Shown here: positions 2,817-61,559 of the stretch, piece after piece | Layout of the letters: each line of letters starts with the position of its first letter | Numbering within the stretch: the stretch's first letter is position 1 | Source of the DNA: an uncultured Planctomycetales bacterium | GTDB lineage: Bacteria; Omnitrophota; Gorgyraeia; Aquiviventales; Aquiviventaceae | DNA: 64,000 nucleotides | Direction: 5' to 3' | NCBI GenBank assembly: GCA_964556925.1 | Contig: CAZKXY010000002.1 | Coordinates: 1,953-65,952 of the forward strand | Notes under the pieces: model-generated | What the model was told of the DNA's origin: nothing | The model's input: only the letters and a program-made list of their open reading frames with translations | Databases searched by the model: none | Translations under genes and position numbers: made by a program

Positions 2817-4355
2817 TTGTTGATCACCGATTGGATCTGCAGCGCCCGTGCGCGCCAGCCGTCCGCGCCGGCCATCATCGATGGCGAGCGCTGTTTCACC
2901 TATGAGGCGTGCGCCCGTGAGATCGCGAAGCTGGCCTGGGCGCTGAAGGGCCGCGTGCCGGCCGGGGCACGGGTGGGGCTCCTGATGGGCAATTGCGCCG
3001 AGCTGCTCTTCGCCCAGTATGCGGTGGTCAGCCTCGGCGCCATCGCCGTGCCGATCAACGTCGCCCTCCATGCGCAGAGGGTGGAGGAGATCCTGCGTGA
3101 TGCCGGGGTCAGCGTGGTGCTCGCGCAGGATCGGGCGCTGCGCCGGTATCAGGCGGTGCTGGAAGCGTGCCCGGACATTGCGTTGGTGGTGCAGGACGGG
3201 CGGGAGGCGGCGCTCGGCAAGGAGACGGCGTTGTGGGACACCCTGGAGGAACGCGCCGACTTCGAGCCGCGCAGGGATGTCAGCGAGCAGGCGACGGCGC
3301 TCATCCTGTACACCACCGGCACGACCGGCCGGCAAAAGGGGGTGGAGTTGACCCACGCCAACTTGATGGCGGCAACCCGCAACATCAACGAGGTGATGGG
3401 CCTCACGGAAGGCGAGCGGGAGGTCGTCTCGCTGCCGTTGACGCATTCGTTTGGCCTGGGACGGACGCGGTGCCTCTTGGAGACGCGAAGCACGGTGATC
3501 ATCGAGTCCGGGTTGGACCGGCCGGACAAGGTGCTCTCGAGCTGCCTGCGCCATCAGGCGACCGGGCTGGCGTCGGTGCCGGCGGGGTTTGCCATCTTTC
3601 TGTCGCGGTATGCTGACCTGCTGAACCAATGCGCTGGCTTCTTGCGGTACGTGGAGATCGGCAGCGCCCCCATGCCGCTGGCGCACAAGCGGGCCTTGAT
3701 GGAGGCGCTGCCGCGCACCCGGCTGTTCATGCACTACGGGCTGACTGAAGCCTCCCGGTCGGCGTTCATCGAATTCCATGCCGAGCCGGACCGGCTGGAG
3801 TCGGTAGGCAAGCCAGCGGTCAACGTGTCTATCAAGGTGGCGGATGACCAAGGACGCGCCGTGCCGCCTGGCCAGGTCGGGACGATCTGGATCGCCAGCG
3901 ACACGGTCATGAAGGGGTACTGGAACCGGCCGGAGGACACGGCGCGCGCGCTGGTGGACAGCTGGCTGATGACCGGCGACCTCGGATCGCTGGATGAGCA
4001 GGGCTATCTGACGCTCTGGGGCAGGACCCAGGACCTCATCAATGTGGGCGGGTACAAGGTACTCGCACGCGAGGTCGAAGACGTGCTGACGGGCCACCCG
4101 CGCGTGGAGGAATCCGCGGTGGTGGGGGTGCGGGATCCCTTGGAGATTTCGGGCGAGGTCGTGAAAGCGTTTGTCGTCCGGAAGGACGACGGGGTGTCGG
4201 CGGAGGAGCTGAAGCGCCATTGCCTCAAGCATCTGGAGCCGTGGAAGGTGCCCGCCATCGTGAGCTTCGTGCCCCGGCTACCGAAGACCGGCTCAGGCAA
4301 GGTCCAGAAGCAGCTGCTGGCCGACGCACTCGATGCCATGGCGAGGGCGGCATGA
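2817..4355 (+). CDS. ANL-superfamily acyl-CoA/acyl-ACP ligase (AMP-forming)
   Basis: AMP-binding core LILYTTGTTGRQKGVELTHANL, hinge TGDLG, and C-terminal catalytic Lys motif PKTGSGKVQK. TTG start 2 nt after the ACP stop. Confidence 0.85.
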   Translation: MLITDWICSARARQPSAPAIIDGERCFTYEACAREIAKLAWALKGRVPAGARVGLLMGNCAELLFAQYAVVSLGAIAVPINVALHAQRVEEILRDAGVSVVLAQDRALRRYQAVLEACPDIALVVQDGREAALGKETALWDTLEERADFEPRRDVSEQATALILYTTGTTGRQKGVELTHANLMAATRNINEVMGLTEGEREVVSLPLTHSFGLGRTRCLLETRSTVIIESGLDRPDKVLSSCLRHQATGLASVPAGFAIFLSRYADLLNQCAGFLRYVEIGSAPMPLAHKRALMEALPRTRLFMHYGLTEASRSAFIEFHAEPDRLESVGKPAVNVSIKVADDQGRAVPPGQVGTIWIASDTVMKGYWNRPEDTARALVDSWLMTGDLGSLDEQGYLTLWGRTQDLINVGGYKVLAREVEDVLTGHPRVEESAVVGVRDPLEISGEVVKAFVVRKDDGVSAEELKRHCLKHLEPWKVPAIVSFVPRLPKTGSGKVQKQLLADALDAMARAA

Positions 4356-5560
4356 TCGGCGCAGCCCTCGAACGCGAGCGGCTGCCGGCCGCTGGACTGG
4401 ATGCCATCCGGTGGCTGGTGCCGCGCCTGGTCCTGCCTCGACATGTCTGTTTTCGAGCCGGGTCGTTATCGATGCTGAAGCAGCTTGGCGCCCGCCGCGC
4501 GTTCGTGATCACTGGCCCTTCCTCGGCCAGGGCCTCTGGCGCCCTGGACAAGGTGCTCGGCCATGTGGTGAGCGGCGGGGGCGAGGCGGTCTGTTATGAC
4601 CGGATCGCCGGGGAGCCGACGTGGTCCAGGATTCGCGAAGGGGTGGAGGCCATGCGGGCGGCTGGACCGGACTGGATCATCGGGATCGGCGGGGGCTCGG
4701 TGCTGGATGCGGCCAAGCTCATGTATGCGTGGTACGAGCACCCTGCGCTGGAGCCGGCGGCCTGCGCGCGGCCCTTCAGCATCCCGCCGCTGCCGCGCCG
4801 CAGCCGGCTGGGGCTGATCCCGACCACCGCCGGCACGGGGTCCGAGGTGAGCTGCTCGGCCATCGTCCAGAATAGCGAGCGGCGGATCAAAGAGATCATC
4901 GTGTCGCACGAGCTGTTGCCGGATGTCGCGCTCCTGGACCCCTTGCTGACCGTCAGCCTGCCGGCGCCCATGACGGCCGCGACCGGGATGGATGCGTTGA
5001 CGCACGCCATCGAAGCCTTCGTGTCCCTGGCGCACAACCCGTTCACGGATGCGTGCGCCGCGGCGGCGGTGCGCCTCATCCTGTGCCACTTGCCGCCGGC
5101 CGTCCAGGATGGCAGCCGCCTGGAGGCGCGCGATGGCATGCTCCACGCCGCCTGCCTGGCCGGCATCGCCCAGAGCAATGTGTCTGTCGGGCTCGTCCAT
5201 GCGATCGCGCACAAGCTGGGGGCGATGGCGATGAGCCCGCTCCCGCACGGGGTGCTCAACAGCCTGATGCTGCTTCCGGTGATGCGGTTCAACGCCCAGG
5301 CGCAGCCCGGGCGGTACGAGGCGCTGGCCGTCGCATCCGGCTTCAGCGGATTCGAAGCGCTGGTGTCCGCGATCGAGCGCCTCCAGCAGGGGGCGCGGAT
5401 GCCCCGGCGCCTGAGCGCGGCCGCGCCGGCAGAGGAGCTGCTGGGACGCATGGACGAGCTCTGCCGGGACATCCTGGCGGATCCGTGCGCGCGGACCAAC
5501 CCGCGGTGCGCTTCGGCGGAGGACATCGCGCGGCTGCTCGAAGCCGCGCTGGCGGAGTGA
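4352..5560 (+). CDS. iron-containing (group III) alcohol dehydrogenase
   Basis: GIGGGSVLDAAKLM (GGGSxxD NAD motif) and metal-His region DALTHAIEAF. The ATG at 4352 forms an ATGA overlap with the ligase stop. Confidence 0.8.
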   Translation: MIGAALERERLPAAGLDAIRWLVPRLVLPRHVCFRAGSLSMLKQLGARRAFVITGPSSARASGALDKVLGHVVSGGGEAVCYDRIAGEPTWSRIREGVEAMRAAGPDWIIGIGGGSVLDAAKLMYAWYEHPALEPAACARPFSIPPLPRRSRLGLIPTTAGTGSEVSCSAIVQNSERRIKEIIVSHELLPDVALLDPLLTVSLPAPMTAATGMDALTHAIEAFVSLAHNPFTDACAAAAVRLILCHLPPAVQDGSRLEARDGMLHAACLAGIAQSNVSVGLVHAIAHKLGAMAMSPLPHGVLNSLMLLPVMRFNAQAQPGRYEALAVASGFSGFEALVSAIERLQQGARMPRRLSAAAPAEELLGRMDELCRDILADPCARTNPRCASAEDIARLLEAALAE

Positions 5561-7983
5561 TGGACTCGATCGAGGCCTTGTTGAGGCAGCCGCCGTTTGC
5601 GGCCGGTCCGGAGGAGAAAACGGCGCTGTTGGTGCCCGCGGTCCAGGCGGCGCTGCAACGTCATTACGAGCATTGCGCCGCCTTCAGGACCGTGTGCGAC
5701 ACGCGCAGGTTCGCGCCTGCGCGCGGTGTCTCTGATCTTGCCGCGATCCCGTATCTGCCGGCGCAGTTCTTCAAGCAGATGGCGCTCAGCACGAACGACG
5801 GGGGCGGGCCGACCGTGACGCTGCGGTCCAGTGCGACGACCTCCGGGGTCCCGAGCCAGATCGTCGTGGACGCCGTGACGGCCAGGCGGCACAAGCTCGC
5901 CGTGGTGTCGGTCCTCAAGAGTTACCTGGGGCCGGAGCGCCTGCCGTTCGTGGTGTTTGACGCCGACCCGTCGTTGCAGGGGCTGGCGCCCTCATCGCTT
6001 ACCGCGCGGGGGGCGGCGATCCGAGGGTTCCTCCTGGCCGCCAACGCGGTGGACTATGTGATGGTCGAAGAGGGGGAGGGCGGCCTCCGGCTGGACACAG
6101 AGCGGCTCGGGCGGACCCTGGCCCAATTCGGAGACGGCGAGCGGATGTGTCTCTTTGGCTTCACCGCACCCCTGTACCAGGCCATGCGCCAGGTCCTGGA
6201 AGGGAGCATGCGGTACTGGCTGCCGCAGGCGACGGTGCTGCATATCGGCGGCTGGAAGAAGCTGCAGCAGCAGGCCGTGACGAAATCCGCGTTCGCCGCG
6301 CTCATGGGCGAGACGGTTGGCGTGCCGCCCGACCGGGTGATCGACGTGTACGGATTCACCGAGCAGATCGGCATGATCTACCCGGACTGCGAGCAGGGGG
6401 TCAAGCATGCCCCGGTGTTCGCCGAGGTCATCGTGCGCGATCCGCGCACGCTCCAGCTGGCGGACGACGGCCAGGAGGGGCTGCTGCAGTTCATCTTCCC
6501 CGTCCCGCACAGCTACCCCGGGGTGTCGGTCATCACGGATGACGTGGGCCGGATTGTTGGGAGAGACCGGTGCGGCTGCGGGCGCCGCGGCACCGCCTTT
6601 GTCGTCTTGGGACGCGCGCCGGCGGCCGAGCCGCGCGGGTGCGGAGACCTGGCCCCGGCGCCTGCGGCGCTCGGGCCGCGTGACGCCATGGCGAGGCATG
6701 CCTTGTCGCAGGCCACGACTGAGCGCGAGCTCGCGCTCGACGAGCTGATCCAGGAGCTGCGCCGACACGCCGACGCGGTCCATGCGCTGGAGAGCGACCA
6801 GATCCTCGGCCTGCTCGGCGAGCTGCGCCGCGTCCTGGCTGACCCCGCCCACCCGCTGCACCAGCAGCTGCGGCCGCTCGGGCTGCCGTTCCTCTTGCGC
6901 TGGCTCGCGCCTGAGCGGCTTGCAGCCCAGTTGGATCTCGCGATGCACGGCACGCGCCGCTATCTGGATGCCTTTTTGCCGTCCGGGGACCGGCTGCTCC
7001 ATGCGCAGCCGCGCGGGCTCGTGGTGCACTGGATCGCCGGGAATGTGCCGCTCCTAGGCGTGTTCTCGCTCGTGCAGGCCTGGCTGACGAAAAACGTCAG
7101 CCTGATCAAGGTGCCGGCCGACTGGCCGGGCGTGATCCCCGCGCTGCTGGATACACTCTCGCAGGTGACGTATCTCGCGGCGGACGGCCGGGCGACCTCC
7201 GGGGTGGCGCTCGCGCGCGGCGCGGCGGCACTGTATGTCGATCGCGATGACCGCGCCGCCCAGGAAACACTCTCTCTGGCGGCGGATGCGCGGGTGGCGT
7301 GGGGCGGCCGCGAGGCCATTGAAGCGATCCAGGCGCTGCCGAAGGTGCCCGGCGTGGAAGACATCCTGTTCGGGCCCAAGTACTCGTACATGGTGATCGG
7401 CAGGGAACGTCTGGCGGCAGGGGCCGGGGTGCTCGACCTGGCCACGCGCGCCGCGTTCGACGTCTGCCTCTTCGACCAGCAGGGGTGCAACTCGCCGCAC
7501 ACCATCTTCGTCGAGCGGGGCGGGGCGGTGAGCCCCCGCGAGTTCGCCGCCAGGCTGGCCGAGGCCATGGAGCGGGTGTGCGCCACGATTCCGAAGGCTC
7601 CGCCCAGTCCGCAGGACGTCTCACGCCTGCTCACGCTGCGGGCGACGTATGACGTGCGCGGCCTCGCGCATTACTCCCCGGGGCCGGAGTGGACGGTGCT
7701 GTATGGGGAGGATGACGAGGGGTTGGCCGAGGCGTGCGGCGGCCGCGTGGCGTTCGTCCGGCCGATCGCGGACGCGATGGATGCGGCCGAGCTGGCCAGC
7801 CGGCGCACCCAATCGATCGGCGTGGCGTTGGACCACAGCCGCCGGATCGCGTTTGCCGAGCGGGCCACGTGGGGCGGGGCCGAACGCTGTCCCCCCGTCG
7901 GCGAGATGAGCCATTACGAATCGCCTTGGGACGGGGTCTTCATGATGGACCGGCTCGTGCGGTGGGTGACGACCTATGCGTAA
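5560..7983 (+). CDS. fused LuxE-like acyl-protein synthetase / LuxC-like acyl-CoA (acyl-ACP) reductase
   Basis: The N-terminal ~370 aa (QPPFAAGPEEKTALLVPAVQAALQRHYEHCAAFRTVC, SSATTSGVPSQIVVD, VIDVYGFTEQ, GCGRRGT) looks LuxE-like. The C-terminal ~430 aa (HWIAGNVPLLGVFSLVQAWLTKNVSLIKVP, FDQQGCNSPHTIFVE) looks LuxC-like. It is one uninterrupted frame. The ATG at 5560 shares 1 nt with the upstream TGA. Confidence 0.7.
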   Translation: MDSIEALLRQPPFAAGPEEKTALLVPAVQAALQRHYEHCAAFRTVCDTRRFAPARGVSDLAAIPYLPAQFFKQMALSTNDGGGPTVTLRSSATTSGVPSQIVVDAVTARRHKLAVVSVLKSYLGPERLPFVVFDADPSLQGLAPSSLTARGAAIRGFLLAANAVDYVMVEEGEGGLRLDTERLGRTLAQFGDGERMCLFGFTAPLYQAMRQVLEGSMRYWLPQATVLHIGGWKKLQQQAVTKSAFAALMGETVGVPPDRVIDVYGFTEQIGMIYPDCEQGVKHAPVFAEVIVRDPRTLQLADDGQEGLLQFIFPVPHSYPGVSVITDDVGRIVGRDRCGCGRRGTAFVVLGRAPAAEPRGCGDLAPAPAALGPRDAMARHALSQATTERELALDELIQELRRHADAVHALESDQILGLLGELRRVLADPAHPLHQQLRPLGLPFLLRWLAPERLAAQLDLAMHGTRRYLDAFLPSGDRLLHAQPRGLVVHWIAGNVPLLGVFSLVQAWLTKNVSLIKVPADWPGVIPALLDTLSQVTYLAADGRATSGVALARGAAALYVDRDDRAAQETLSLAADARVAWGGREAIEAIQALPKVPGVEDILFGPKYSYMVIGRERLAAGAGVLDLATRAAFDVCLFDQQGCNSPHTIFVERGGAVSPREFAARLAEAMERVCATIPKAPPSPQDVSRLLTLRATYDVRGLAHYSPGPEWTVLYGEDDEGLAEACGGRVAFVRPIADAMDAAELASRRTQSIGVALDHSRRIAFAERATWGGAERCPPVGEMSHYESPWDGVFMMDRLVRWVTTYA

Positions 7984-8698
7984 TCAGTTCCGGTGCCAGG
8001 CACCTCGCCTCCGGCGAGGAGCCAGGCACCGGCGCGAGATTGTGATCGTCGGGGCGGGCGGATTGGGCAAGGAAATCCTCCAGTACGCGAAGGATTTCTG
8101 CGCGGCGACCAGCGGCTACCGCGTGAAGGGCTTTGTCGATCGCGACCCGCTGCGGCAGGGGACCGATCACTGCGGCTATCCGGTCGTCGGGGCTGACGAC
8201 GGGTGCGCGATCGGGGCGCACGACGTGTATCTCCTCGCGCTCGGGACGCCGGAGGGAAGGAAACAGGCGGTGGAGGCGTTGCAGGCGCGGGGCGCGGCCT
8301 TTTTGACGCTGGTGCACCCGTTGGCCTCTGTGGCGCCGTCGGCCGAGGTGAGAACCGGCTCCGTGATCTGCCCCTTTGCCTACGTGGGTCCCGATGCCGT
8401 CGTGGAGGAATACGTGCTCGTGAACCTCTATGCCAGCTGCGGCCATGACGTTCGGATCGGCAGGTATGCCGTCCTCGGCCCCTACGTCTGCACGAACGGC
8501 CACGCCGCCATCGAGGAGGAGGTGTTCCTGGCCACCCATGCCACGGTCACCGTGGGCAAGCGCGTCGGCCGCGGGTCCAAAGTGTCGGCCGGGGCCGTGG
8601 TCACGCAGGATGTGCCGCCCCATGTGCTCGCCGCAGGCAACCCGGTGAGGTGGCGGGAGTTGGAAGCGATGCAAGCGGTGTGGAAGCAGGACCGATGA
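7976..8698 (+). CDS. NeuD/PglB/LegH-family sugar N-acetyltransferase (hexapeptide repeat)
   Basis: N-terminal Rossmann-like EIVIVGAGGLGKEILQYA followed by left-handed beta-helix hexapeptide repeats (GRYAVLGPYVCTNGHAAIEEEVFLATHATVTVGKRVGRGSKVSAGAVV). Confidence 0.75.
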   Translation: MRNQFRCQAPRLRRGARHRREIVIVGAGGLGKEILQYAKDFCAATSGYRVKGFVDRDPLRQGTDHCGYPVVGADDGCAIGAHDVYLLALGTPEGRKQAVEALQARGAAFLTLVHPLASVAPSAEVRTGSVICPFAYVGPDAVVEEYVLVNLYASCGHDVRIGRYAVLGPYVCTNGHAAIEEEVFLATHATVTVGKRVGRGSKVSAGAVVTQDVPPHVLAAGNPVRWRELEAMQAVWKQDR

Positions 8699-8711: not shown

Positions 8712-9908
8712 ATGAGGACGATTGGCGTTGTGACCGTCGGGCGCTCAGACTACGGCAACTACGTGCCGCTGTTGCGAGCGATACAGCGGGATGCCGCGCT
8801 GCGCCTTCAGCTCATCGTGGGCGGCATGCACCTGTCAGCCGCGTTCGGCTTGACGGTCGAGGCGATCCGGGCCGATGGCTTTGACATCGCCGACCGCGTC
8901 GAGATGCTCCTGTCGTCAGACGCCCCCGAAGGGATCGCCACGTCGATGGGGGTCGGCGTGATGGGGTTCGCGCAGGCCTACGCGCGTCACCGGCCGGACG
9001 TGCTGGTCGTGCTGGGTGATCGCTTCGAGATGTATGCGGCCGCGTCCGCCGCGGTCCCGTTTCGGATGCCGATCGCCCACATCGCCGGCGGCGAGCTGAC
9101 GGAAGGCGCCATCGACAACAGCTTCCGGCACGCGATCACGAAACTCAGCCACCTGCACTTCGTGACGACCGCCACCTACGCCGCGCGCGTCATCCAAATG
9201 GGGGAGGAGCCGTGGCGGGTGACGGTGTCCGGCGCGCTCGGGTTGGATCATCTGCAGGCCTTCGTCGCCTCCGGCCGCCCGGCGCTGGAGGCCCTGGTGG
9301 GCCTCCGCCTCGATCCTCCTCCCCTGGTGGTGACCTACCATCCGGTGACGTTGGAGTACGACCGCGCCGGGGTCCAGATCGACGCGCTGCTGAACGCGCT
9401 GCAGCCGCTCGACCGGCCGCTCATCTTCACCCTCCCGAACGCGGATACCAATGGGCGCGTGATCCGTCAACGCATCGAGGCGTTCGTGGCGCGCCGGCCC
9501 TCCGCCGTCCTGGTCCCGAATCTTGGCACGCAGGCGTATTTCAGCCTGATGGCGCACGCCGCCGCGATGGTGGGCAATTCGTCCAGCGGCCTTGTCGAGG
9601 CGCCATCCTTCGGCCTGCCGGTCGTGGACATCGGCACGCGACAGGCGGGCCGCCTGCGGGCCGCGAACGTCATTCCCTGCGGGTACGGGGCCGACGAGAT
9701 CCGCCAGGCCCTCGCGCGCGCCCTCTCGCCGGAGTTCCGAGCGGGGTTGCAGGGCCTGCGCAATCCCTACGGCGAGGGTCGCGCGTCCGAGCGCATCCTC
9801 GAGGCGCTCACAGGGGTGGCGATCGACGACCGCCTGCTCGTGAAGGCCTTCCACCAGGTCGGCGCTCGGCAGGCGCCCCAGGAGCTCTCGGCATGGACAC
9901 GGATTTAA
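8712..9908 (+). CDS. neuC: hydrolysing NDP-N-acetylhexosamine 2-epimerase (NeuC/LegG family)
   Basis: MRTIGVVTVGRSDYG, GDRFEMYAAASAAVPFRMPIAHIAGGELTEGAIDNSFRHAITKLSHLHF and GNSSSGLVEAPSFGLP match the NeuC-type epimerase pattern. Confidence 0.8.
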   Translation: MRTIGVVTVGRSDYGNYVPLLRAIQRDAALRLQLIVGGMHLSAAFGLTVEAIRADGFDIADRVEMLLSSDAPEGIATSMGVGVMGFAQAYARHRPDVLVVLGDRFEMYAAASAAVPFRMPIAHIAGGELTEGAIDNSFRHAITKLSHLHFVTTATYAARVIQMGEEPWRVTVSGALGLDHLQAFVASGRPALEALVGLRLDPPPLVVTYHPVTLEYDRAGVQIDALLNALQPLDRPLIFTLPNADTNGRVIRQRIEAFVARRPSAVLVPNLGTQAYFSLMAHAAAMVGNSSSGLVEAPSFGLPVVDIGTRQAGRLRAANVIPCGYGADEIRQALARALSPEFRAGLQGLRNPYGEGRASERILEALTGVAIDDRLLVKAFHQVGARQAPQELSAWTRI

Positions 9909-10966
9909 CCAACTTCTGCGTGGCCCCGGGCACCCCGCTGAGGCGGGTGGTGGCCCAGATGGATGGCAACCGGCTGGGGATTGCGCTCGTGATTGATGGC
10001 GAGCGTCGGCTGGTCGGGACGGTCACGGACGGGGATGTCCGCCGCGCCGTGCTGGCGAACATCGGGTTCGACCAGCCGGTCACCGAAGTCCTGCGCCGCA
10101 AAGCCGGCACCAAGTTTGCGATGCCGGTCACGGCGCCGGCCGGGGCCGACCCGAGCACCTATCTCAGCGTGCTCAAGGAGCACCGGCTGCTGTATCTGCC
10201 CCTGATTGATGGGGACGGCCGCGTGGCCGGGCTGGTGACGCTGGCGGAGTTCGTCCCGGCTGAGCCGCTGACGATCCAGGCCGTGGTGATGGCGGGCGGG
10301 AAGGGCCGCCGGCTCCATCCGCTGACGCAGCAGCTGCCCAAGCCGATGCTGCTGGTCGGCGGACAGCCCGTGCTCGAGATCATCATCAAGCAGCTGCGGG
10401 ACGCCGGCATCAGGCAGGTGACGGTGACGACCCATCACCACCCGGACCGGATCGCGGAACATTTCGGGGATGGGAGCGGCCTGGGGGTGGCGCTCTCCTA
10501 TCTAGAGGAAGAGCGCCCGCTGGGCACGGTCGGCGGCCTGGGGCTGCTGGGCGCCCCGAACGACACCACGCTGGTGATCAACGGCGACATCCTGACCCAG
10601 GTCGATTTCCGCGCGATGCTGGACTACCACCGGGAGCACCAGGCGGACCTCACGGTGGCGGTGCGCCAGTACGACCTGAAAGTCCCCTACGGCGTGGTCG
10701 AATGCGCCGGCGAGCGGGTCCGCCGGATCAGCGAAAAACCGGCGTTCCTGGTGTTTGTCAACGCCGGGATGTACCTCCTGGAACCGCTGGTCTACGGCTA
10801 TATCCCGAAGGGGGAGCGGTTGGACATGACCGACCTGATCCAGCGGGTGATTGATGACGGCCGGACGGTGGTCAGCTTCCCGGTGCGGGAGTACTGGCTG
10901 GATATCGGGCAGCGCGACGAATACGAACAGGCCCAAGCGGAAGTGAAACAGTGGGGCGCTCCATGA
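9893..10966 (+). CDS. CBS-pair + sugar-1-phosphate nucleotidyltransferase (PtmE-like)
   Basis: The N-terminal CBS pair (GIALVIDGERRLVGTVTDGDVRRAVL; YLPLIDGDGRVAGLVT) is followed by the NTP-transferase motif VVMAGGKGRRLHPLTQQLPKPML. The ATG at 9893 overlaps neuC by 16 nt. Confidence 0.75.
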   Translation: MDTDLTNFCVAPGTPLRRVVAQMDGNRLGIALVIDGERRLVGTVTDGDVRRAVLANIGFDQPVTEVLRRKAGTKFAMPVTAPAGADPSTYLSVLKEHRLLYLPLIDGDGRVAGLVTLAEFVPAEPLTIQAVVMAGGKGRRLHPLTQQLPKPMLLVGGQPVLEIIIKQLRDAGIRQVTVTTHHHPDRIAEHFGDGSGLGVALSYLEEERPLGTVGGLGLLGAPNDTTLVINGDILTQVDFRAMLDYHREHQADLTVAVRQYDLKVPYGVVECAGERVRRISEKPAFLVFVNAGMYLLEPLVYGYIPKGERLDMTDLIQRVIDDGRTVVSFPVREYWLDIGQRDEYEQAQAEVKQWGAP

Positions 10967-11946
10967 GGTGGGCCGGCGCGCGGGTGCTCGTGACCGGGGC
11001 GGGAGGGTTCATCGGCAGCCATCTCGCCGAGCGGTTGGTGGAGCTCGGGGCGACGGTGCGGGCGCTGGTCCGCTACCGGTCCCAGGGCTCCTGGGGATGG
11101 CTCGACCACAGCCCGCTGAAGCAGGAGCTCGAGGTCGTGGCGGGCGACATCACCGACCGCGATGCGGTCGCCCACGCGATGCAGGAGGTCCAGGTCGTGT
11201 TCCACCTGGCCGCCTTCATCGCCATCCCGTACTCGTATCAGGCCCCGGAGTCGTTCCTGCGGGCGAACGCGGGAGGCACCCTCACCGCGCTGCAGGCGGC
11301 GCGCGCGCAGGGCGTGGCGCGGTTCATCCACACCTCGACGAGCGAAGTCTACGGGACCGCCCGGTCCGTGCCGATCAACGAGCAGCATCCGTTGCAGGCC
11401 CAGTCGCCGTACGCGGCCAGCAAGGTCGCCGCCGACAAGCTGGTGGAATCCTTCGGATGCGCATTTGGCTTGCCGGTGGTGACGGTGCGGCCCTTCAACA
11501 CCTTCGGCCCCCGGCAGTCGGCGCGGGCGATCGTGCCCACGATTATCACCCAGTGCTTGACGGACACGACGGTGCGGCTGGGCAACCTCGCGCCCACGCG
11601 GGATCTGACCTATGTGAGCGATACCGTGGAGGGCTTCGTGCGGGCGGGCGCCTCGCCCCACGCGGTCGGCCGCACGATCAACCTGGGGTCGGGGCGCGAG
11701 ATCGCCATCGGCGAGCTGGCGCGGCGGATCGCTGAGCTGGCCGAGCAGCGCGTGCAGATCGCGCAGGAGCAGCAGCGCATGCGGCCGCAGGACAGCGAAG
11801 TGGAGCGTCTCCTCTCGGATAACCGCCTGGCGAAGGAGCTGCTCGGCTGGCAGCCCGCGGTGTCGCTGGATGAGGGGCTGCGACTGACGATCGAGTGGAT
11901 GCGGGAACACCTTGATGGCTACCGTCCAGGCGCCTACGTCCTTTGA
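10963..11946 (+). CDS. NAD-dependent NDP-sugar 4,6-dehydratase/epimerase (extended SDR; LegB-like position)
   Basis: VLVTGAGGFIGSHLAERLV (GxxGxxG), catalytic STSEVYG and YAASKVAADKL (YxxxK). ATGA overlap with the upstream stop. Confidence 0.8.
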   Translation: MRWAGARVLVTGAGGFIGSHLAERLVELGATVRALVRYRSQGSWGWLDHSPLKQELEVVAGDITDRDAVAHAMQEVQVVFHLAAFIAIPYSYQAPESFLRANAGGTLTALQAARAQGVARFIHTSTSEVYGTARSVPINEQHPLQAQSPYAASKVAADKLVESFGCAFGLPVVTVRPFNTFGPRQSARAIVPTIITQCLTDTTVRLGNLAPTRDLTYVSDTVEGFVRAGASPHAVGRTINLGSGREIAIGELARRIAELAEQRVQIAQEQQRMRPQDSEVERLLSDNRLAKELLGWQPAVSLDEGLRLTIEWMREHLDGYRPGAYVL

Positions 11947-13156
11947 CGCGCCCGCCCCACCGCGGCGCATTCCGCTCAGCGAGCCGAGGCTCGCCGGCAA
12001 CGAGTGGACGTATCTGAAGGCGTGCCTGGACAGCGGCTGGATCTCGTCGGTCGGGCCGTTCGTCAGCCGGTTTGAGCAGGCCTTTGCGGCCAACGTCGGG
12101 GCCGCGCACGCCGTGGCGGTGGTGAACGGCACCGCAGGGCTGCATCTGGCGCTGCGCGCCGCCGGGGTCGGGCCCGGTGATGAAGTGCTGGTGCCGACCC
12201 TCACGTTCATCGCGCCGGTGAACGCGATCCGCTATTGCGGGGCGCATCCGGTGTTCATCGACGCCGATCCGCAGACCTGGCAGATGGACGCCGCCGGCGT
12301 GCGGCGGTTCCTGGAGCATCAGTGCGAGCGGCGAGGCGGCGCCTGCGTCAACACCCGGACCGGCCGCCGCGTGCGCGCCATCCTGCCGGTGCACCTCCTC
12401 GGCTCGGCGTGCGCGATGGACGAGATCATGGAGCTAGGCCGTCGCTATGGCCTGATGGTGGTGGAGGATGCGTGCGAGGCGATCGGCGTGCGCTCTCGCG
12501 GCCGCCATGTGGGGACGGTGGGGGACCTGGGCGTCTTCAGTTTTAACGGCAACAAGACCCTGACCTGCGGAGGGGGCGGCATGGTGGTGGCGGCCGATGC
12601 GCGGCAGGCCGACTATGTCCGCTATGTCTCGGCCCAGGCGCGGGATGATCAACGGGAATATCACCACCGCGACGTCGGCTACAACTACCGACTCACGAAC
12701 CTGCATGCGGCGATTGGATTGGCGCAACTCGAGCAGATGGATCAGTTGCTGGATCGCAAACGCCGCATCGCCGCCGCCTACGAGCGCGCGTTGCGCGGCA
12801 TCGACGGCATCACGCTGATGCCCACACCGCCGCAGACCGACCCGGGGTTTTGGCTGTACACCGTCCTGTTGACGCCAGGCACCACGGTGGGCCAACGGAA
12901 CGCGGTGCTTGATCGACTGGCTGCCGAGGGGTTGGAGGCGCGGCCGCTGTGGCAGCCGATCCACACGCTGCCGCCCTATCGGGGCTGCCAGGCGTTCGAC
13001 GTGCAGGTGGCGCCCGACTTGTACGCGCGCGCCGTGAGCCTGCCCAGCAGCGCGGGGATGACGGAGGACGAGCTGCAGCGATGCGTCGCTGTGGCGAACG
13101 CCGTGCTACGACTATCAGGGACGGACGATCGCCGTGGAGAATCGGGGAGCACATAG
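11915..13156 (+). CDS. DegT/DnrJ/EryC1/StrS PLP-dependent sugar aminotransferase (LegC-like position)
   Basis: IPLSEPRLAGNEWTYLKACLDSGWISSVGPFV, and FSFNGNKTLTCGGGGMVV with the PLP-binding Lys context. Confidence 0.8.
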   Translation: MATVQAPTSFDAPAPPRRIPLSEPRLAGNEWTYLKACLDSGWISSVGPFVSRFEQAFAANVGAAHAVAVVNGTAGLHLALRAAGVGPGDEVLVPTLTFIAPVNAIRYCGAHPVFIDADPQTWQMDAAGVRRFLEHQCERRGGACVNTRTGRRVRAILPVHLLGSACAMDEIMELGRRYGLMVVEDACEAIGVRSRGRHVGTVGDLGVFSFNGNKTLTCGGGGMVVAADARQADYVRYVSAQARDDQREYHHRDVGYNYRLTNLHAAIGLAQLEQMDQLLDRKRRIAAAYERALRGIDGITLMPTPPQTDPGFWLYTVLLTPGTTVGQRNAVLDRLAAEGLEARPLWQPIHTLPPYRGCQAFDVQVAPDLYARAVSLPSSAGMTEDELQRCVAVANAVLRLSGTDDRRGESGST

Positions 13157-13166
13157 GGGGGAACCC

Positions 13167-14942
13167 ATGGAGGAGCAGGGGGAAGTGAAGGGCTCGTGTG
13201 GATGCGGCTCCTGCGGCTGCGGCTCTCACGACGCCGACCAGGAGGGGGGGCACGTCACGCCGGTGCGGGTGCAGCTGCAGACAACGGCTGAAGATGGCCC
13301 GAGCAAGTTGACGCGCGTCCTGTTGATCGATATTGAACGGGATGCGCCCAATGGGGGGTGGGGGCAGCTTGATGCGAGTTGGCGGAGCCACCCGACTGGG
13401 CTCCTGTACCTGGTGTCCTTCGTCCGACAGCGGTTCCCCGATATGGAGTTCAAGGTGTTTCATACCTCAACCGTTGACAATCCCCGTGAGACCGTCAAGG
13501 CCATGATCGGGGAGTTTGCCCCTGAGCTGATCGGCCTGCGGTCGTTGTCCAGTGCCCGGGATGCGTTCATCGCCATGGCGCAATTCCTTCGCACCGTCGC
13601 CCCAGGGGTTCCCCTGATCGGCGGCGGGCCGTATCCCAACGCCTCCCCGGAGGAGTTGGTCGAGCCGCAGCTCCTCGATCTCGCCGTCATGGGGGAGGGG
13701 GAGGAAACCTTTCTTGAAATCGTCCAAGCCCTGCGCACCACCGGTCGGCTCCCCTTGGACGTCCTGGGGACGGCCGTCCTCAAGGCCGGGCAGTTTCACG
13801 TCAATCCCCCCCGCCCCTTGATGAAGGATTTGAACGTGGTGCCGTTTCCCGACTACGATCTGATTGATCTGCACGCGTACAGCAATATGGCCAACCAGGC
13901 CTTCCAAGACCTCTCCAAGAGCGCCGTGATCTGCGGCTCGCGGGGATGTCCGTACTCCTGCTTCTACTGCCATCAACTCTTCGGGAAGCAGATTCGCCGC
14001 CGCACCCCGGAGAACATCGTGGGGGAGCTGCAGTATCACGTCAATCGCGGGATCAGGAACTTCATGTTTGTCGATGACATTTTCAACGTCCCCAAGGACA
14101 AATGTAAGGACATCCTGCGGTTGGTAATCAAGGAGGTCCCGGGGATTCGACTCAACTTCCCCCAGGGCTTGCGGGCGGATCAGATGGACGAGGAGGTGCT
14201 GGACCTGTTTCAGGAGGCGGGGACGGTGCTCATGGCGCTGGCGGTGGAATCCTCCAGTGCGCGCTTGCAGAGACTGATGGGGAAGAATCTCCAGATCGAA
14301 CGCGCCCGGCGTTCGATTGAGTACGCGTCCACCCGCTTTGTGGTGACCTGCTTCTTTATCGTGGGGTTCCCGACCGAGACCTACGAGGAAGCGATGGGCA
14401 CCATTCAGTTCGCCAAGGACCTCGAATACGTCTCGCAGCCGGTCCTCTCCGTCCTGCGGGTGTATCCGGGGACGTTCCTGTACGACCTGTTGAAACCCAC
14501 CAAAGAAGAGACCCAGCGGCTGCTCGAACAGCAAGCGCAACCCTATACGCCCACCCTCTTTCGGGAGACCCCGTTTTATGGGGATGTTTTTCCGCCGGAG
14601 AAGGTGCCGCTGCGGGGGACCGACATTCGGAAGATTCGCTGGGAGTGGATGATGCGGATCGTGAGAAACCCGCAGCGAATGGCCAAGAGCCATGCGATGC
14701 TCAAGCAGCATTTTACCTACGAGGAGATCATTGAGTTCTATCGGAACTTCTACGACAAGCGCACGTTTGGACACGACGATTACATGGCCATCGAGAACGT
14801 CCAGAAGCAGGTCGAACAAGGTGAAGCGAGCAAGAATGGCGAAGCGAGCAAGAACCGTGAGAATATCGACCCCCTCTTCGCCGAGGCAGAGTCATCCGGC
14901 GCCCGGTGGACCACGACGGGGTGGCGGGTGGTCAAGGAGTGA
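13167..14942 (+). CDS. B12-binding-domain radical SAM enzyme (no. 2) with Cys/Gly-rich N-terminal extension
   Basis: B12-domain pattern (VLLIDIE...PTGLLYLVSFVRQRFPDMEFKVF) and cluster motif GSRGCPYSCFYCHQ. The ATG at 13167 follows a GGGGGG SD-like run. The N-terminus is MEEQGEVKGSCGCGSCGCGSHD. The C-terminus carries an 18-bp x2 repeat (GEASKN GEASKN, 14820-14855). Confidence 0.85.
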   Translation: MEEQGEVKGSCGCGSCGCGSHDADQEGGHVTPVRVQLQTTAEDGPSKLTRVLLIDIERDAPNGGWGQLDASWRSHPTGLLYLVSFVRQRFPDMEFKVFHTSTVDNPRETVKAMIGEFAPELIGLRSLSSARDAFIAMAQFLRTVAPGVPLIGGGPYPNASPEELVEPQLLDLAVMGEGEETFLEIVQALRTTGRLPLDVLGTAVLKAGQFHVNPPRPLMKDLNVVPFPDYDLIDLHAYSNMANQAFQDLSKSAVICGSRGCPYSCFYCHQLFGKQIRRRTPENIVGELQYHVNRGIRNFMFVDDIFNVPKDKCKDILRLVIKEVPGIRLNFPQGLRADQMDEEVLDLFQEAGTVLMALAVESSSARLQRLMGKNLQIERARRSIEYASTRFVVTCFFIVGFPTETYEEAMGTIQFAKDLEYVSQPVLSVLRVYPGTFLYDLLKPTKEETQRLLEQQAQPYTPTLFRETPFYGDVFPPEKVPLRGTDIRKIRWEWMMRIVRNPQRMAKSHAMLKQHFTYEEIIEFYRNFYDKRTFGHDDYMAIENVQKQVEQGEASKNGEASKNRENIDPLFAEAESSGARWTTTGWRVVKE

Positions 14943-14972: not shown

Positions 14973-17105
14973 ATGAACGTCTTTGTCGAGTGCTTGACGC
15001 TGCGGACCTGGGTGCAGGGCATCCTGCCGTCTCTCATACGGCAGGGCCCCCGTGCGGCCGCGCGGTGGTATGTGGTGGACGCCTCGCGGCTCGGCCTGGC
15101 GGCCGCCCGCCTGACCGGGCGGCTCCTGGGGGTGTCGCTTGAGCCGTTGGCGTTTCGCATGGAGGAGATCCGCGACGCGCACGGCCGCTCGGTCTGGTTG
15201 CGGATGCTGTATCAGGATCTGCTTGAGGTGCACGCCGAGGTCATGCGCGAGCCGGCGTTTCACGCGGTCGGGGCGCGCGCCGCGAGGTACCTGGCGAAGG
15301 TCGTGGGGGCGTCGACGGCCAACATGACGCAACGGCAGACGCTGTGGCGGGCGCTGCTCGTGATCCAGGTCTGCGCCTGGAAGGTCAGGCGCGAGGCCGG
15401 CGGAGGCGGCCAGGCGGTCTGTTTTCTGGAGCGGCGGCCATGGGATGCGGCGGTCGCCCGGTACGCGTCAGCGCACGGCATCACGTGCGTGCCGATCCCT
15501 CCCACGCCTCCGCTGCGGAGCCGGTTGACCGCGCTGGTGTCCCCGGAGCTCCGCCGCGGCCTTGGCGATCTTCGGGGCCTCTGGCAGGAGGCCAGGCGAC
15601 GTCGCCGGCCTGGCGCCTCCCGCCCGCCGCCGCCCGCCCGGGCGTCTCAGGCCGCGCCGGGAGGCGCGCGCATCGCCGTGGACTACTGGGGGCACTTGAA
15701 CCTCGCCGATCCGTCCCGGCACTCCAACCTCTTTTTCTGGCAGCAGTCGTCGCTGCCGGCCGACCGGCTCGTCGTGACCTTCGATCTGCCGCAAGCCCCG
15801 CTGGACGACGCGAAGTGGGCTGAGCTGGCCCGGCACGGGATGTCGGCTATTGCCCTGAGGCCGGAGGCAACCACCCTGCCGTGGGCCTCGGCGTGCGTGC
15901 CCCCGCGCCGGCCTGGCGCCGGGCGAGCGAGGACGCCGGAGCGGATCGCGTTCCCCGCCGCTGAAGGCCGGTGGCTGGCGCGCCATCTCCACGCCTACCG
16001 GCAGGAGCGGGCCTTCTGGGCCGAGTTCGCCGCCTCGCAGCGCATCAAGATCTACGTGTCATGGTTCAGGATCACCGAACGGTTCTGCGCGATCGCTGAC
16101 GCCTTGCACGACCGGGGCGGGATCTCCGCGATCTACCAGCGGTCAGTGGAAATGCACCCCTCGCCGCAACTGCGCACGGCGGCGGACGTCATGTTTGGCT
16201 GCTCCGCCATGAGCGCTGACGTCGAACGGCGGGCCGGCTCGACCATCCCCTATTTCGTGGTGACGGGCTATCTCGGGGACCATCGCGCCGCCTTGTGGCG
16301 CACGCGCGCGCAGGAGATCCGCCAGCGCCTGCACGGGCAGGGGGCGAGACGGCTCCTGGCCTTCTGCGACGAGAACTCATCCGACGACGACCGATGGGTT
16401 CCGGGCCATGCGCTGCCGCGTGAAGCGTATGCGTTTTTGCTCGAGCGCCTGCTCCAGGAGCCATGGCTTGGCCTGCTCCTCAAGCCGAAGACCCCGCAGA
16501 CGCTGCGCCGGCGGCTGGGCCCGGTGGCCGCGTTGCTGGCGCGCGCGGAAGCCACGGGCCGCTGCGTGGTGTTCGAGGACGGCCGGATCCAGGGCTCCAC
16601 CCCGCCGGTGGCGGCGGCGCTGGCCGCTGATGTGATGGTCCACGGCCATCTCTATGGCGCGACCGCCGGGGTGGAATCCGCGCTCGCCGGGGTGCCGACG
16701 CTGCTGATGGATCGCGAAGGGTGGCCGGTCAGCCCGTTGTACCGTCTCGGACTCGGGCGGGTGGTCTTCACGGACTGGCCGGCGCTGTGGGAGGCGTGCT
16801 GCGAGCATTGGCGCCGCCCCGGCGGCGTGCCGGGGTTCGGGGCGTGGGCATCGATCGTGGACGAGCTCGACCCGTTTCGGGATGGGCGCGCGGCCGAGCG
16901 GATGGGCACGTACCTCCAGTGGCTCCTGGAGGGGTTCGACGCCGGCTGGGACCGGCAGACGGTCCTGGCCGCTGCCGCCGAGCGCTACGCGGCTCAGTGG
17001 GGACAGCAGACCGTGATGTCCATCAACACGCCGCCGCGAGCCGCGATGGCCGCCTCATCCCGGATCGCGGGTGACGTCCCAGTGGAGCAGATGGCCTCAT
17101 CATGA
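14973..17105 (+). CDS. hypothetical protein, possible Rossmann/GT-B-like transferase (710 aa)
   Basis: Long ORF with coding-like composition. The C-terminal half (LLAFCDENSSDD...LLLKPKTPQ...VMVHGHLYGATAGVESALAGVPTLLMD) resembles capsule/teichoic-type GT-B transferases. I cannot assign a family. Confidence 0.35.
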   Translation: MNVFVECLTLRTWVQGILPSLIRQGPRAAARWYVVDASRLGLAAARLTGRLLGVSLEPLAFRMEEIRDAHGRSVWLRMLYQDLLEVHAEVMREPAFHAVGARAARYLAKVVGASTANMTQRQTLWRALLVIQVCAWKVRREAGGGGQAVCFLERRPWDAAVARYASAHGITCVPIPPTPPLRSRLTALVSPELRRGLGDLRGLWQEARRRRRPGASRPPPPARASQAAPGGARIAVDYWGHLNLADPSRHSNLFFWQQSSLPADRLVVTFDLPQAPLDDAKWAELARHGMSAIALRPEATTLPWASACVPPRRPGAGRARTPERIAFPAAEGRWLARHLHAYRQERAFWAEFAASQRIKIYVSWFRITERFCAIADALHDRGGISAIYQRSVEMHPSPQLRTAADVMFGCSAMSADVERRAGSTIPYFVVTGYLGDHRAALWRTRAQEIRQRLHGQGARRLLAFCDENSSDDDRWVPGHALPREAYAFLLERLLQEPWLGLLLKPKTPQTLRRRLGPVAALLARAEATGRCVVFEDGRIQGSTPPVAAALAADVMVHGHLYGATAGVESALAGVPTLLMDREGWPVSPLYRLGLGRVVFTDWPALWEACCEHWRRPGGVPGFGAWASIVDELDPFRDGRAAERMGTYLQWLLEGFDAGWDRQTVLAAAAERYAAQWGQQTVMSINTPPRAAMAASSRIAGDVPVEQMASS

Positions 17106-18670
17106 CGGTCGTGACCCTTGAGCGATTGGGGCAGGCGCTGCACGAGATCCGGCAGCGGTGTCCTGATCTGCCGCTGTTGGCGATCCGCTGGATGCACATC
17201 AAGCATCCGCTGCATGAGACGCAAGAGCGGCTCTTGCAGCGCGAGGGACACGCGGCGTGGCAGGTCGCGGCCTGGCGGGGTCGTCTGACGCGTGTCCGCC
17301 GGCTGGGGCAGTGCGTGGTGTACGCGTGCCTCGTGAGCGTCCGGCTCGCGCGGATGCGTTGGCTGGTGCGGCGGCAGATGGCCATGCTGGCACGCCGGCC
17401 GTTTGATGTCCTGGCCAGGACGTGGTGCTTCGGCACCGAGCGGCCGCACGATGATCGGGACTTCTACTATGGCGACCTCCAGCAGCGGCTGGCGCAGCGG
17501 AACGTCCAGATGCTGCTGCTGTGCGGCGATGTCTCTGGGAAGGTTCGGGGCGGGTTTGCCAGGGGCCAGGTGGCCGTGTCGCCACTCGCCCGGATGCCGG
17601 ACCTGTGCCTTGTGCATCCGCTGGCCCCATTCCACATGATGGCCAAGCAGCTGCTGACGTGCTGGAGGCTGTGGCGGCTCCGGCGGAAGGAAGCGGATCC
17701 GTTGATCCGGGCGATCCTCGCGTTCGCCGGCCGCGATTGCCTCGCCCCGGACACGGCGCTGACAGGCCTGTTGTTCTGGGTCGGGAGGGCCGCCGCCCGC
17801 ACCTGGGGCCCCAAGGCGGTCGTGACGTTCTATGAAGGCCAGGCGTATGAGTCCTGTCTCTGGCGGGGCGTCAAAGCGGCGCAGGCGTCCTGCCAGACGG
17901 TGGGGTATCAGCATACCGTCCTGCTGCGCCACAACCTCGCGCTGCTGGGCGCCGAGGATCGTCGAGCCGTCGTCGCGCAGCCTGACGTCGTGCTCTGTCT
18001 CGGGCCGGAAACCCAGGCCATGCTCCGGCCCAGCCATCCGCGCGCGAAGCTCGTGGTGTTCGGGACGTTCCGGCAGCTGCCGGACGCAGCGCAACGCCAT
18101 GCGCCCCGCCCGCAGGTCCGGGTGGCGCTCGTCGTGCCGGAATCGGGCCTCATCCCTGAGTCGCAGGCGCTCTTCCAGTTCACGCTGCGCGCGGCCCGCG
18201 CCCTGCCTGACTACCGGTTCCTGTTCCGGTGCCACCCCATCATGCCGTTCGCCCGCCTGCGCCCGCTGCTCCCGGAGCCCCCCGAGGAGCTGCCCAACTT
18301 GGAGGTCTCGCAGACCGCCTCCATCGCGGACGACTTCGCCCGCTCGTCGGTGGTGCTCTACCGCGGCTCCTCCTCGGTCCTCTATGCGGTCCTGCACGGG
18401 CTCAAACCCGTCTACGTCCGCCTCGCCCGCTGCCCGGACGGCGACCCGCTCTTCGAGCTGGACGGGTGGCGGGAGCGCGCGTCCTCCGTCGACGAGCTCG
18501 CGCAGGTGTTGCGCCGCTACGCGGCGGTCGCTGCGGAGGACGCGCGGCGTCAGTGGCGCGACGCGGCGCGCTATGTCGAGCGCTACACGACCGCGGTGAG
18601 CGAGGCGTCCGTGGAGGCGTTGTGCTCCGCCGTCGGCCTGTCATCGGCTGGGGCCCCATGCGGTGCCTGA
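17102..18670 (+). CDS. uncharacterised surface-carbohydrate-locus protein, paralog A (of 53441-55036)
   Basis: Collinear similarity to 53441-55036: LERLGQALHEIRQRCPDLPLLAIRWMHIKHPLH vs LERLAEVLATVQRQCPELAVLAIRWMHLRHPLH; DFYYGDLQQRLA..LLLCG in both; GYQHT in both. ATGA overlap with the upstream gene. Confidence 0.4.
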   Translation: MTVVTLERLGQALHEIRQRCPDLPLLAIRWMHIKHPLHETQERLLQREGHAAWQVAAWRGRLTRVRRLGQCVVYACLVSVRLARMRWLVRRQMAMLARRPFDVLARTWCFGTERPHDDRDFYYGDLQQRLAQRNVQMLLLCGDVSGKVRGGFARGQVAVSPLARMPDLCLVHPLAPFHMMAKQLLTCWRLWRLRRKEADPLIRAILAFAGRDCLAPDTALTGLLFWVGRAAARTWGPKAVVTFYEGQAYESCLWRGVKAAQASCQTVGYQHTVLLRHNLALLGAEDRRAVVAQPDVVLCLGPETQAMLRPSHPRAKLVVFGTFRQLPDAAQRHAPRPQVRVALVVPESGLIPESQALFQFTLRAARALPDYRFLFRCHPIMPFARLRPLLPEPPEELPNLEVSQTASIADDFARSSVVLYRGSSSVLYAVLHGLKPVYVRLARCPDGDPLFELDGWRERASSVDELAQVLRRYAAVAAEDARRQWRDAARYVERYTTAVSEASVEALCSAVGLSSAGAPCGA

Positions 18671-22249: not shown

Positions 22250-22864
22250 ATGACTGACGCATTTCTGTCCCGGCATTTCGCCGAGGCGGCGGAGATCGCC
22301 AGGCGGCTGGACGTCGCCGTCGTGGAGCGGATGGTGGAGCGGCTCGTCCGGCTGCGGGAGGAGGGCGGACGGCTCTTCCTCTGCGGCGTCGGCGGCAGCG
22401 CCGGCAACTGCTCGCACGCCGTCAACGATTTCCGCAAGCTGGCGGGGATCGAGGCGTACAGCCCCGTGGACAACGTCTCGGAGCTGACGGCGCGCACGAA
22501 CGATGAGGGGTGGGAGACGGTGTTTGCGGAATGGCTGAAGGTGAGCCGCGCGTGCGAGCGCGACGCGCTCTTCATCCTGTCGGTCGGCGGCGGCAGCCGG
22601 GACCGGCGGATCAGCGTCAATCTCATCGCCGCCGTCGATGAGGCGAAGGCGCGCGGCCTGGATGTGCTCGGGATCGTCGGGCGCGATGGCGGCTACACGA
22701 AGGAGCGGGGCGATCTCGTCCTCGTGATCCCCACGGTGAACGAGCGGTCGGTGACGCCGCACACCGAGGCGTTCCAGGCGGTGGTGTGGCACGCGCTGGT
22801 GTGCGACCCCCGGCTCATGCGCTACGGGAATAAGTGGGAAACCGCGATGGCGGCGCACCGCTGA
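22250..22864 (+). CDS. SIS-domain sugar-phosphate isomerase (GmhA-like)
   Basis: LFLCGVGGSAGNCSHAVNDFRK and ILSVGGGS are typical of phosphoheptose-isomerase-type SIS domains. Confidence 0.7.
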   Translation: MTDAFLSRHFAEAAEIARRLDVAVVERMVERLVRLREEGGRLFLCGVGGSAGNCSHAVNDFRKLAGIEAYSPVDNVSELTARTNDEGWETVFAEWLKVSRACERDALFILSVGGGSRDRRISVNLIAAVDEAKARGLDVLGIVGRDGGYTKERGDLVLVIPTVNERSVTPHTEAFQAVVWHALVCDPRLMRYGNKWETAMAAHR

Positions 22865-22871
22865 GGGAGCG

Positions 22872-58613: not shown

Positions 58614-58617
58614 CGCG

Positions 58618-61540: not shown

Positions 61541-61559
61541 GGCGCTGTCGGGCACGGCG

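Follow-up and report, generated by a model that had tools for sequence, protein, structure and literature searches.

The window analysed here is a stretch of 64,000 nucleotides from an uncultured Planctomycetales bacterium (GTDB lineage Omnitrophota; GenBank assembly GCA_964556925.1, contig CAZKXY010000002.1, positions 1,953 to 65,952). It carries on its + strand, at positions 5560-7983, a gene of 2424 nt whose 807-amino-acid (aa) product joins a LuxE-like acyl-protein synthetase to a LuxC-like acyl-thioester reductase, in the manner of RfbN/WbeN of Vibrio cholerae. The reading frame is free of stop codons from 5053 to 7983, and the A of the ATG at 5560 is also the last base of the TGA stop codon of the upstream gene for an iron-containing alcohol dehydrogenase (Fe-ADH) (..GAGTGATGGAC..). 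This start matches independent gene calls on other contigs and the N-termini of homologues. An earlier note, made from the letters alone, had described one stop-free frame of 807 aa running from a LuxE-like N-terminus to a LuxC-like C-terminus. The open reading frame (ORF) and its translation bear this out, and we confirm that 5560-7983 is a genuine gene for a single, fused LuxE-LuxC polypeptide. The motifs quoted in that note are all present: HYEHCAAFRTVC (aa 35-46), SSATTSGVPS (90-99), GCGRRGT (339-345), HWIAGNVPLLG (490-500) and FDQQGCNSPH (638-647).

Two Pfam profiles cover the protein with scores far beyond chance, namely LuxE (PF04443; aa 7-363, E-value 9.8e-69, profile positions 21-384 of 391) and LuxC (PF05893; aa 408-802, E-value 1.2e-77, profile positions 2-401 of 401), in agreement with the domain assignments and the E-then-C order proposed before. 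These matches, together with the homology to WbeN and an AlphaFold model, define the gene as RfbN/WbeN type. The LuxE-like adenylating domain (aa 1-363, positions 5560-6648) was delimited by Pfam, by alignment to chain E of the Photobacterium LuxC-LuxE complex (7XC6) and by its invariant residues; it contains the P-loop S90-S99, K233, R352 and the acyl-accepting C361 (codon 6640-6642), the last in the tail motif ExRGCGD. The LuxC-like reductase domain, which has the aldehyde-dehydrogenase fold (aa 400-807, positions 6757-7983; Pfam, alignment to chain A of 7XC6, Foldseek), contains the motif HWxAGNVP (490-497) and the catalytic C643 (codon 7486-7488). Between them lies a poorly conserved, Ala/Pro-rich linker (aa 364-399, positions 6649-6756), recognised by model confidence, conservation and the fact that relatives are naturally split there.

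The AlphaFold model, built from an 87-sequence alignment, shows two confident domains (mean predicted local distance difference test score, pLDDT, 89.9; predicted template modelling score 0.84), and its sole disordered segment comprises residues 365-385 (pLDDT < 50), directly after C361. With the full-length model as query, Foldseek returned only LuxC and aldehyde-dehydrogenase matches, of which LuxC (7xc6_A) was the best (E-value 4.4e-22, template modelling score 0.70 on the target), followed by the aldehyde dehydrogenases.

Conservation was assessed in an alignment of 87 homologues of 36-47 % identity. Both halves of the fused protein align with the 7XC6 complex (E-values 2.6e-20 and 7.9e-20), and K233, R352, C361 and C643, which correspond to Lys238, Arg355 and Cys364 of LuxE and to the catalytic Cys of LuxC, are invariant in 87/87 homologues. 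In Photobacterium LuxE, Lys238 and Arg355 serve adenylation, after which Cys364, part of a flexible motif at the C-terminus, takes over the acyl group; this motif must move more than 30 Å to reach the catalytic Cys of LuxC, and NADPH then frees the aldehyde (PMC9157457). By homology and residue conservation, the N-terminal domain of the fused enzyme would adenylate a carboxyl group with ATP through K233 and R352, and would move the acyl group onto its own C361, at the start of a flexible segment that doubles as the linker. The thioester-bearing tail would then swing into the LuxC-like domain, where the acyl group would be passed to C643 and reduced to an aldehyde, presumably by NADPH. The direct channeling of the acyl group from synthetase to reductase that the earlier note envisaged is supported by these aligned and invariant relay residues. 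We regard it as very probable, judging from homology, that the protein is a real RfbN-type fused synthetase-reductase working by such a Cys-to-Cys relay.

The linker deserves separate comment. Since the disorder begins directly after C361, the acyl-carrying cysteine is placed by the model at the root of the tether, and a single element appears to serve both as swinging LuxE tail and as inter-domain linker in the RfbN-type family. Within the alignment, conservation drops to 0.34-0.44 in the linker, whose length varies from 36 to 72 aa; the 36 residues between the invariant D363 and L400 of the window protein make it the shortest of the 87 (median 56). The earlier description of an Ala/Pro-rich linker was thus right in composition; its length of ~40 aa should be corrected, the flexible part being about 20-36 aa. 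In the same way, GCGRRGT does lie near the LuxE C-terminus, but it is not the key tail motif (C338 is found in 41/87 homologues and C340 in 26/87). The functional one is E357-x-R359-G-C361-G-D363, which is invariant in 87/87.

The coding signal is continuous across the fusion: GC content at third codon positions is 0.78-0.94 in each 150-nt bin of the gene, junction included. Moreover, three metagenome contigs that were assembled separately (one from ENA, two from JGI) carry the 2424-nt gene without a single base difference, which establishes the fusion as far as assemblies go; one of the three may be the window's own source, and this support is of the assembly and not of the read level.

A search of 5.8 billion proteins gave 184 matches at an E-value of 1e-10 or below, and the domain architecture was judged on the best 120. 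The PF04443 + PF05893 fusion was found in 118 of these clusters (~800-875 aa, 36-49 % identity), the remaining two being the query itself and one LuxC-only protein. The public names of these proteins include ‘LuxE/PaaK family acyltransferase’, ‘acyl-CoA reductase’, ‘Acyl-protein synthetase, LuxE/Acyl-CoA reductase (LuxC)’ and ‘Acyl protein synthase/acyl-CoA reductase RfbN’. A parallel scan of GTDB, with one genome per species, revealed relatives in 248 genomes. Among the loci of the best 80 of these 248 genomes, 77 contain a single uninterrupted ORF, and they come from at least 10 phyla. The relatives in these 80 belong to Planctomycetota, Verrucomicrobiota, Acidobacteriota, Actinomycetota, Bacteroidota, Clostridia, Spirochaetota (Treponema parvum), Nitrospirota, Magnetococcales, Gammaproteobacteria (Vibrio fortis, Marinomonas polaris), Parcubacteria and Marinimicrobia. 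The GTDB species representatives contained no close relative: the best match, from the Pirellulales, is 45 % identical. The same E-C architecture is therefore widespread in databases, and the suggestion that it departs from the usual separate LuxE and LuxC does not hold, because the fusion is the norm of a family whose prototype had already been named. The fused gene adds a new and divergent member to this large annotated family, and the fusion itself is no discovery.

In a 76 %-identical, fully syntenic relative (L005, positions 318-2770), LuxE (374 aa) and LuxC (443 aa) are encoded by separate genes overlapping by ATGA; compared with the window there is a 1-nt indel in the linker, and LuxE ends in EPRGCADLMPEPLATRSA followed by the stop codon. 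Three further relatives, from the Acidobacteriaceae (L011), the Thermoguttaceae (L019) and the Marinimicrobia (L031), have an in-frame stop 7-12 codons past the GCGD motif, with a Met soon after. All four splits thus fall in the linker, 7-18 codons past the acyl-cysteine motif, and are followed by a restart. The L005 indel and the stops in the other three point to at least four independent fission events, always just past the tail; the direction of change was judged by parsimony alone, the more distant relatives of the window/L005 pair all being fused. Such post-tail splits restore the classical LuxE layout, in which the protein ends ~9 residues past Cys364. Since four relatives are split in the linker, the fusion would not be obligatory for function, and would simply hold together two relay partners that can also act as separate proteins. 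These repeated splits provide a small, clean case of interchangeability between a fused and a two-protein LuxE-to-LuxC relay.

The prototype, RfbN/WbeN (VC0251) of V. cholerae O1 (825 aa), is 37.5 % identical to the window protein over 826 alignment columns (query aa 2-804; BLASTP E-value 0), and the match P0082 of the protein search (825 aa) is identified as this RfbN both by its locus and by the name of its cluster, ‘acyl protein synthase/acyl-CoA reductase RfbN [Vibrio cholerae]’. The locus is a typical O1 wbe region, with perosamine genes, an ABC transporter, an acyl carrier protein (ACP; 77 aa), an AMP-ligase (471 aa), an Fe-ADH (374 aa), the fused gene (825 aa), a hexapeptide transferase (188 aa) and RfbT. 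VC0251 is annotated as ‘acyl protein synthase/acyl-CoA reductase’ (PMC9915646, PMC3441752). The prototype was described in 1995, as cited in PMC3441752 and PMC12208996; the former assigns VC0248-VC0252 (rfbKLMNO/wbeK-O) to tetronate biosynthesis, and the latter reports that RfbL loads 2,4-dihydroxybutanoate onto CoA or RfbK. In the V. cholerae product, the acyl group is held by an amide linkage (PMC3441752).

Counterparts of these genes surround the fused gene of the window, all on the + strand. They encode an ACP (2554-2814, 86 aa, serine motif WDSMGHL, PP-binding E-value 6.4e-6; an 86-aa gene is also called in loci L001-L003), an AMP-forming acyl ligase (2820-4355, 511 aa, AMP-binding + AMP-binding_C) and the Fe-ADH (4352-5560, 402 aa, Fe-ADH + ADH_Fe_C). 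These correspond to RfbK/WbeK (19 % identity, E-value 1.9e-9), RfbL/WbeL (29 %, 3e-57) and RfbM/WbeM (33 %, 4e-62), respectively. Downstream, at the LegH position, lies a NeuD/PglD-family hexapeptide N-acyltransferase (7976-8698, 240 aa; TIGR03570 171 bits against a cutoff of 160.8, PglD_N + Hexapep). The junctions from the ACP through to the transferase measure +5, -4, -1 and -8 nt, which indicates that these genes are tightly coupled. Upstream of the ACP gene are those of a VOC/glyoxalase-fold protein of the methylmalonyl-CoA-epimerase-like fold family (2127-2567, 146 aa, Glyoxalase_4 E-value 2e-18), for which an accessory role may be supposed, and of a B12-binding radical SAM enzyme (526-2130, B12-binding + Radical_SAM), possibly an acyl- or sugar-modifying accessory. 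The radical SAM gene overlaps the VOC gene by 4 nt, a sign of translational coupling, and it has a counterpart in the 76 %-identical syntenic relative.

The cassette is placed inside a legionaminic-acid operon by its flanks. Downstream follow, on the + strand, genes for NeuC/LegG (8712-9908; TIGR03568 437 bits, cutoff 236), a PtmE-like protein with CBS and nucleotidyltransferase domains (9893-10966; CBS + NTP_transferase), a LegB-like dehydratase (10963-11946; TIGR04180 436 bits, just under the cutoff of 475) and the LegC aminotransferase (11915-13156; TIGR04181 462 bits, cutoff 420). On the same contig, just upstream of the window, are NeuB, a CMP-transferase (CTP_transf_3) and an MptE-like (Maf-type) protein. 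Pfam scans of the 64-kb window revealed no second hexapeptide/PglD-type N-acyltransferase.

To examine how far this arrangement is conserved, the window proteins were compared by tblastn with 83 loci, and genes near the fused gene were recorded. An AMP-ligase was found in 77/83 loci, an Fe-ADH directly upstream of the fused gene in 51, a PglD-like transferase in 34, a LegC-like aminotransferase in 30, and NeuB and the VOC protein in 13 each. In loci devoid of the Fe-ADH, e.g. in Bilophila, the ligase gene is followed by the fused gene. The cassette lies within Leg-type clusters in ~13 loci of several phyla, and in several of the Leg-linked loci (L027, L041, L050) the aminotransferase gene lies on one side of it and that of the PglD-like transferase on the other. 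The cassette thus recurs in association with nonulosonic-acid clusters. The arrangement with the ligase directly before the fused gene and no Fe-ADH represents a second cassette subtype, seen in the Bilophila wadsworthia-type locus (L006) and in many Bacteroidales (e.g. L042, L061-L066). The Bilophila locus also holds a ketoacyl-ACP synthase III (KAS III), short-chain dehydrogenases/reductases (SDRs) and a split transketolase. This subtype is very common in gut metagenomes, the protein being indexed in 1002 collection blocks.

We consider it likely, by analogy with V. cholerae, that the fused protein is an RfbN-type carboxylate reductase taking one step toward a short hydroxy-acyl donor for sugar N-acylation, probably of a legionaminic-acid-type sugar. 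In the pathway proposed for V. cholerae, malate would be converted to 2,4-dihydroxybutanoate. Judging from the cassette and from this tetronate precedent, the Fe-ADH would reduce the aldehyde to an alcohol, so that the fused enzyme and the Fe-ADH would jointly turn one carboxyl group of a short di-acid into a hydroxymethyl group, and the separate AMP-ligase would load the other carboxyl onto the dedicated ACP. The coupled NeuD/PglD-type transferase would place the hydroxy-acyl group on the 4-amino group of a legionaminic-acid precursor (the future N7), replacing acetyl, and the neighbouring VOC-fold and B12-radical-SAM enzymes may modify the acid. This specific route, through a hydroxy-acyl-ACP to an N-acylated legionaminic acid, is put forward tentatively, its chances falling a little short of even. 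A bolder version, in which the cassette with the VOC and radical SAM enzymes makes an undescribed, possibly methyl-branched hydroxy-acyl group that the transferase takes from acyl-ACP and not from acetyl-CoA to give a new N7-acylated legionaminic acid, is speculative and rather unlikely to be correct in full. Literature searches on a defined hydroxy-acyl group from such a cassette on legionaminic or pseudaminic acid yielded only 3-hydroxybutanoyl groups of Acinetobacter, with no link to LuxE/LuxC genes. If the bolder version were true, the recurrence of the cassette in Leg-type clusters of several phyla would mark widespread, uncharacterised acyl-modified sialic-acid-like sugars.

Other explanations have to be weighed against this one. 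It might be argued that the fusion is an artefact, i.e. that a missed frameshift or stop, or a chimeric assembly, has joined separate luxE-like and luxC-like genes, and the syntenic relative with its two genes and 1-nt linker indel could be cited in favour. We consider this extremely improbable: the DNA is the same on three separately assembled contigs, the coding signal is unbroken across the junction, 77/80 reference genomes and 118/120 best protein clusters have the fusion, and the linker in the confident AlphaFold model is of an ordinary, disordered kind. The identical contigs, the third-position GC profile and the family-wide architecture effectively rule out a frameshift or assembly error. 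The homology to LuxC and LuxE raises another question, namely whether the enzyme is a lux-like reductase acting on a long- or medium-chain fatty acid and giving a fatty aldehyde or alcohol, or a lipid tail on the glycan. Such a ‘liposugar’ has been suggested for the LuxC/LuxE genes of Aeromonas and enterobacterial flagellin glycosylation islands (PMC7874193, PMC4875605), and the best matches of the window ligase are long-chain fatty-acid ligase models. A true lux system is ruled out by the equivalog scores (LuxC, NF052251, 92.2 bits against a cutoff of 750; LuxE, NF052244, 67.9 bits against 550) and by the sugar-modification gene context. Pfam scans of ~50 ORFs in the window gave sugar and glycan genes only, and no luciferase (luxA/B), LuxD thioesterase or chain-elongating ketosynthase. 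Furthermore, the sole family member linked to a chemically defined product makes a C4 hydroxy-acid (PMC3441752, PMC12208996), and the tightly coupled Fe-ADH and dedicated ACP suit a short polar acyl donor better. A fatty-acid substrate is therefore improbable in our view. Since the relay residues are conserved, the protein is predicted to share the mode of action of LuxCE although it falls outside the lux equivalogs.

The two adenylating activities of the cassette, which may divide their labour in more than one way, leave room for yet another scheme, in which the reductase acts on an ACP-bound thioester and the aldehyde becomes a free alcohol or enters a non-acyl linkage, so that the product bears no N-acyl group. 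LuxC-type enzymes do accept acyl-CoA thioesters as well (PMC9157457). This scheme is nevertheless quite improbable: the strict conservation of the tail Cys and adenylation residues speaks for the LuxE half itself supplying the reductase, the translationally coupled gene downstream encodes an acyltransferase, and the acyl group of the V. cholerae product is amide-linked (PMC3441752). Several points also count against the hydroxy-acyl donor role that we favour. The tetronate pathway is a sequence-based proposal and we found no RfbN enzymology in the literature; the NADPH cofactor is assumed from LuxC; and reduction may concern a free or an ACP-bound acid, just as the glycan carrier may be flagellin, an S-layer or a polysaccharide. 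The window transferase shows no significant similarity to WbeO in a pairwise comparison (E-value 0.024), is hence not its homologue, and may be an ordinary acetyl-CoA-using LegH, and the ligase's top NCBIfam matches, the long-chain models mentioned above, are all under their cutoffs.

The practical value of these observations concerns annotation. LuxE/LuxC matches in polysaccharide or glycosylation clusters are better read as RfbN-type reductases for short hydroxy-acyl decorations, and should not be read as genes of bioluminescence or fatty-aldehyde formation. Members of this large family occur in many phyla, gut Bacteroidales, Lachnospiraceae and Bilophila among them, and the one in V. cholerae affects surface antigens and phage receptors, as wbeN mutants are pan-resistant to ICP phages that depend on the O1 antigen (PMC9915646).

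The genes called in the window (1-64000) nearly all lie on the + strand and either overlap or follow each other very closely; neither tRNA nor housekeeping genes were found there. The whole stretch has the look of one glycan-biosynthesis island, 64 kb or more in length, in an uncultivated organism of ~68-70 % GC. Another fusion was noted at 34730-36703 (+, 657 aa), composed of a KdsB-like CMP-sugar cytidylyltransferase (aa 35-274) and a D-2-hydroxyacid dehydrogenase (aa 362-650). The island holds three B12-binding radical SAM enzymes (the one at 526-2130 and those at 13134-14942 and 20672-22234, all +), whose best matches are C-/P-methyltransferase-type models, all far under cutoffs. Four large ORFs with strong coding signal (14973-17105, 17102-18670, 22872-24659 and 26247-28535, +; 710, 522, 595 and 762 aa) had no Pfam or NCBIfam match; lying among glycan genes, they could be novel glycosyltransferases or Maf-like transferases. 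Genes for a SIS-domain protein, an HpcH/HpaI aldolase, an HAD phosphatase, a second CTP_transf_3 cytidylyltransferase and a KdsA/DAHP-synthase-family protein (22250-26060, 55029-55766 and 61527-62546, +) hint at a second ulosonic-acid-type pathway. Two TylC3-type sugar C-methyltransferases (29361-30965, 44205-45446) and two asparagine-synthase-like amidotransferases (50895-53444, 58579-60483), also on the + strand, suggest heavily methylated and amidated sugars.

Three known systems bear comparison with the window cassette. With the LuxC-LuxE complex (7XC6) the fused protein shares both folds, the aligned key residues and, by prediction, the relay from adenylation through the tail acyl-Cys and the LuxC Cys to an aldehyde (PMC9157457). 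In luminous bacteria, however, LuxC and LuxE are separate proteins in a complex (PMC9157457), act on myristic acid and belong to a lux operon. In the flagellin glycosylation islands of Aeromonas (Group II) and Enterobacteriaceae, separate luxE and luxC genes accompany those of an ACP, an AMP-ligase and FabG (PMC7874193, PMC4875605). The module of LuxE/LuxC, ACP and AMP-ligase among nonulosonic-acid genes is common to these islands and the window, but the islands differ in having unfused LuxE and LuxC, an SDR (FabG) instead of the Fe-ADH, and pseudaminic instead of legionaminic acid; the function of their LuxE/LuxC is as putative as that of the window protein. The closest parallel is V. cholerae, where WbeN is likewise a single LuxE-then-LuxC polypeptide (825 against 807 aa) with the same invariant catalytic residues, and where ACP, AMP-ligase and Fe-ADH genes lie upstream in the same order and an acyltransferase gene downstream. 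In contrast to V. cholerae, the window protein has a linker of 36 aa (47 aa in WbeN), its transferase is of the NeuD/PglD type, a hexapeptide family different from that of WbeO, and its coupled upstream neighbours include additional VOC-fold and B12-radical-SAM genes. In V. cholerae, perosamine carries 3-deoxy-L-glycero-tetronate (2,4-dihydroxybutanoyl) in amide linkage. Since the window cassette lies among legionaminic-acid genes and not directly beside those for GDP-perosamine, another sugar, and possibly another acyl group, would be expected.

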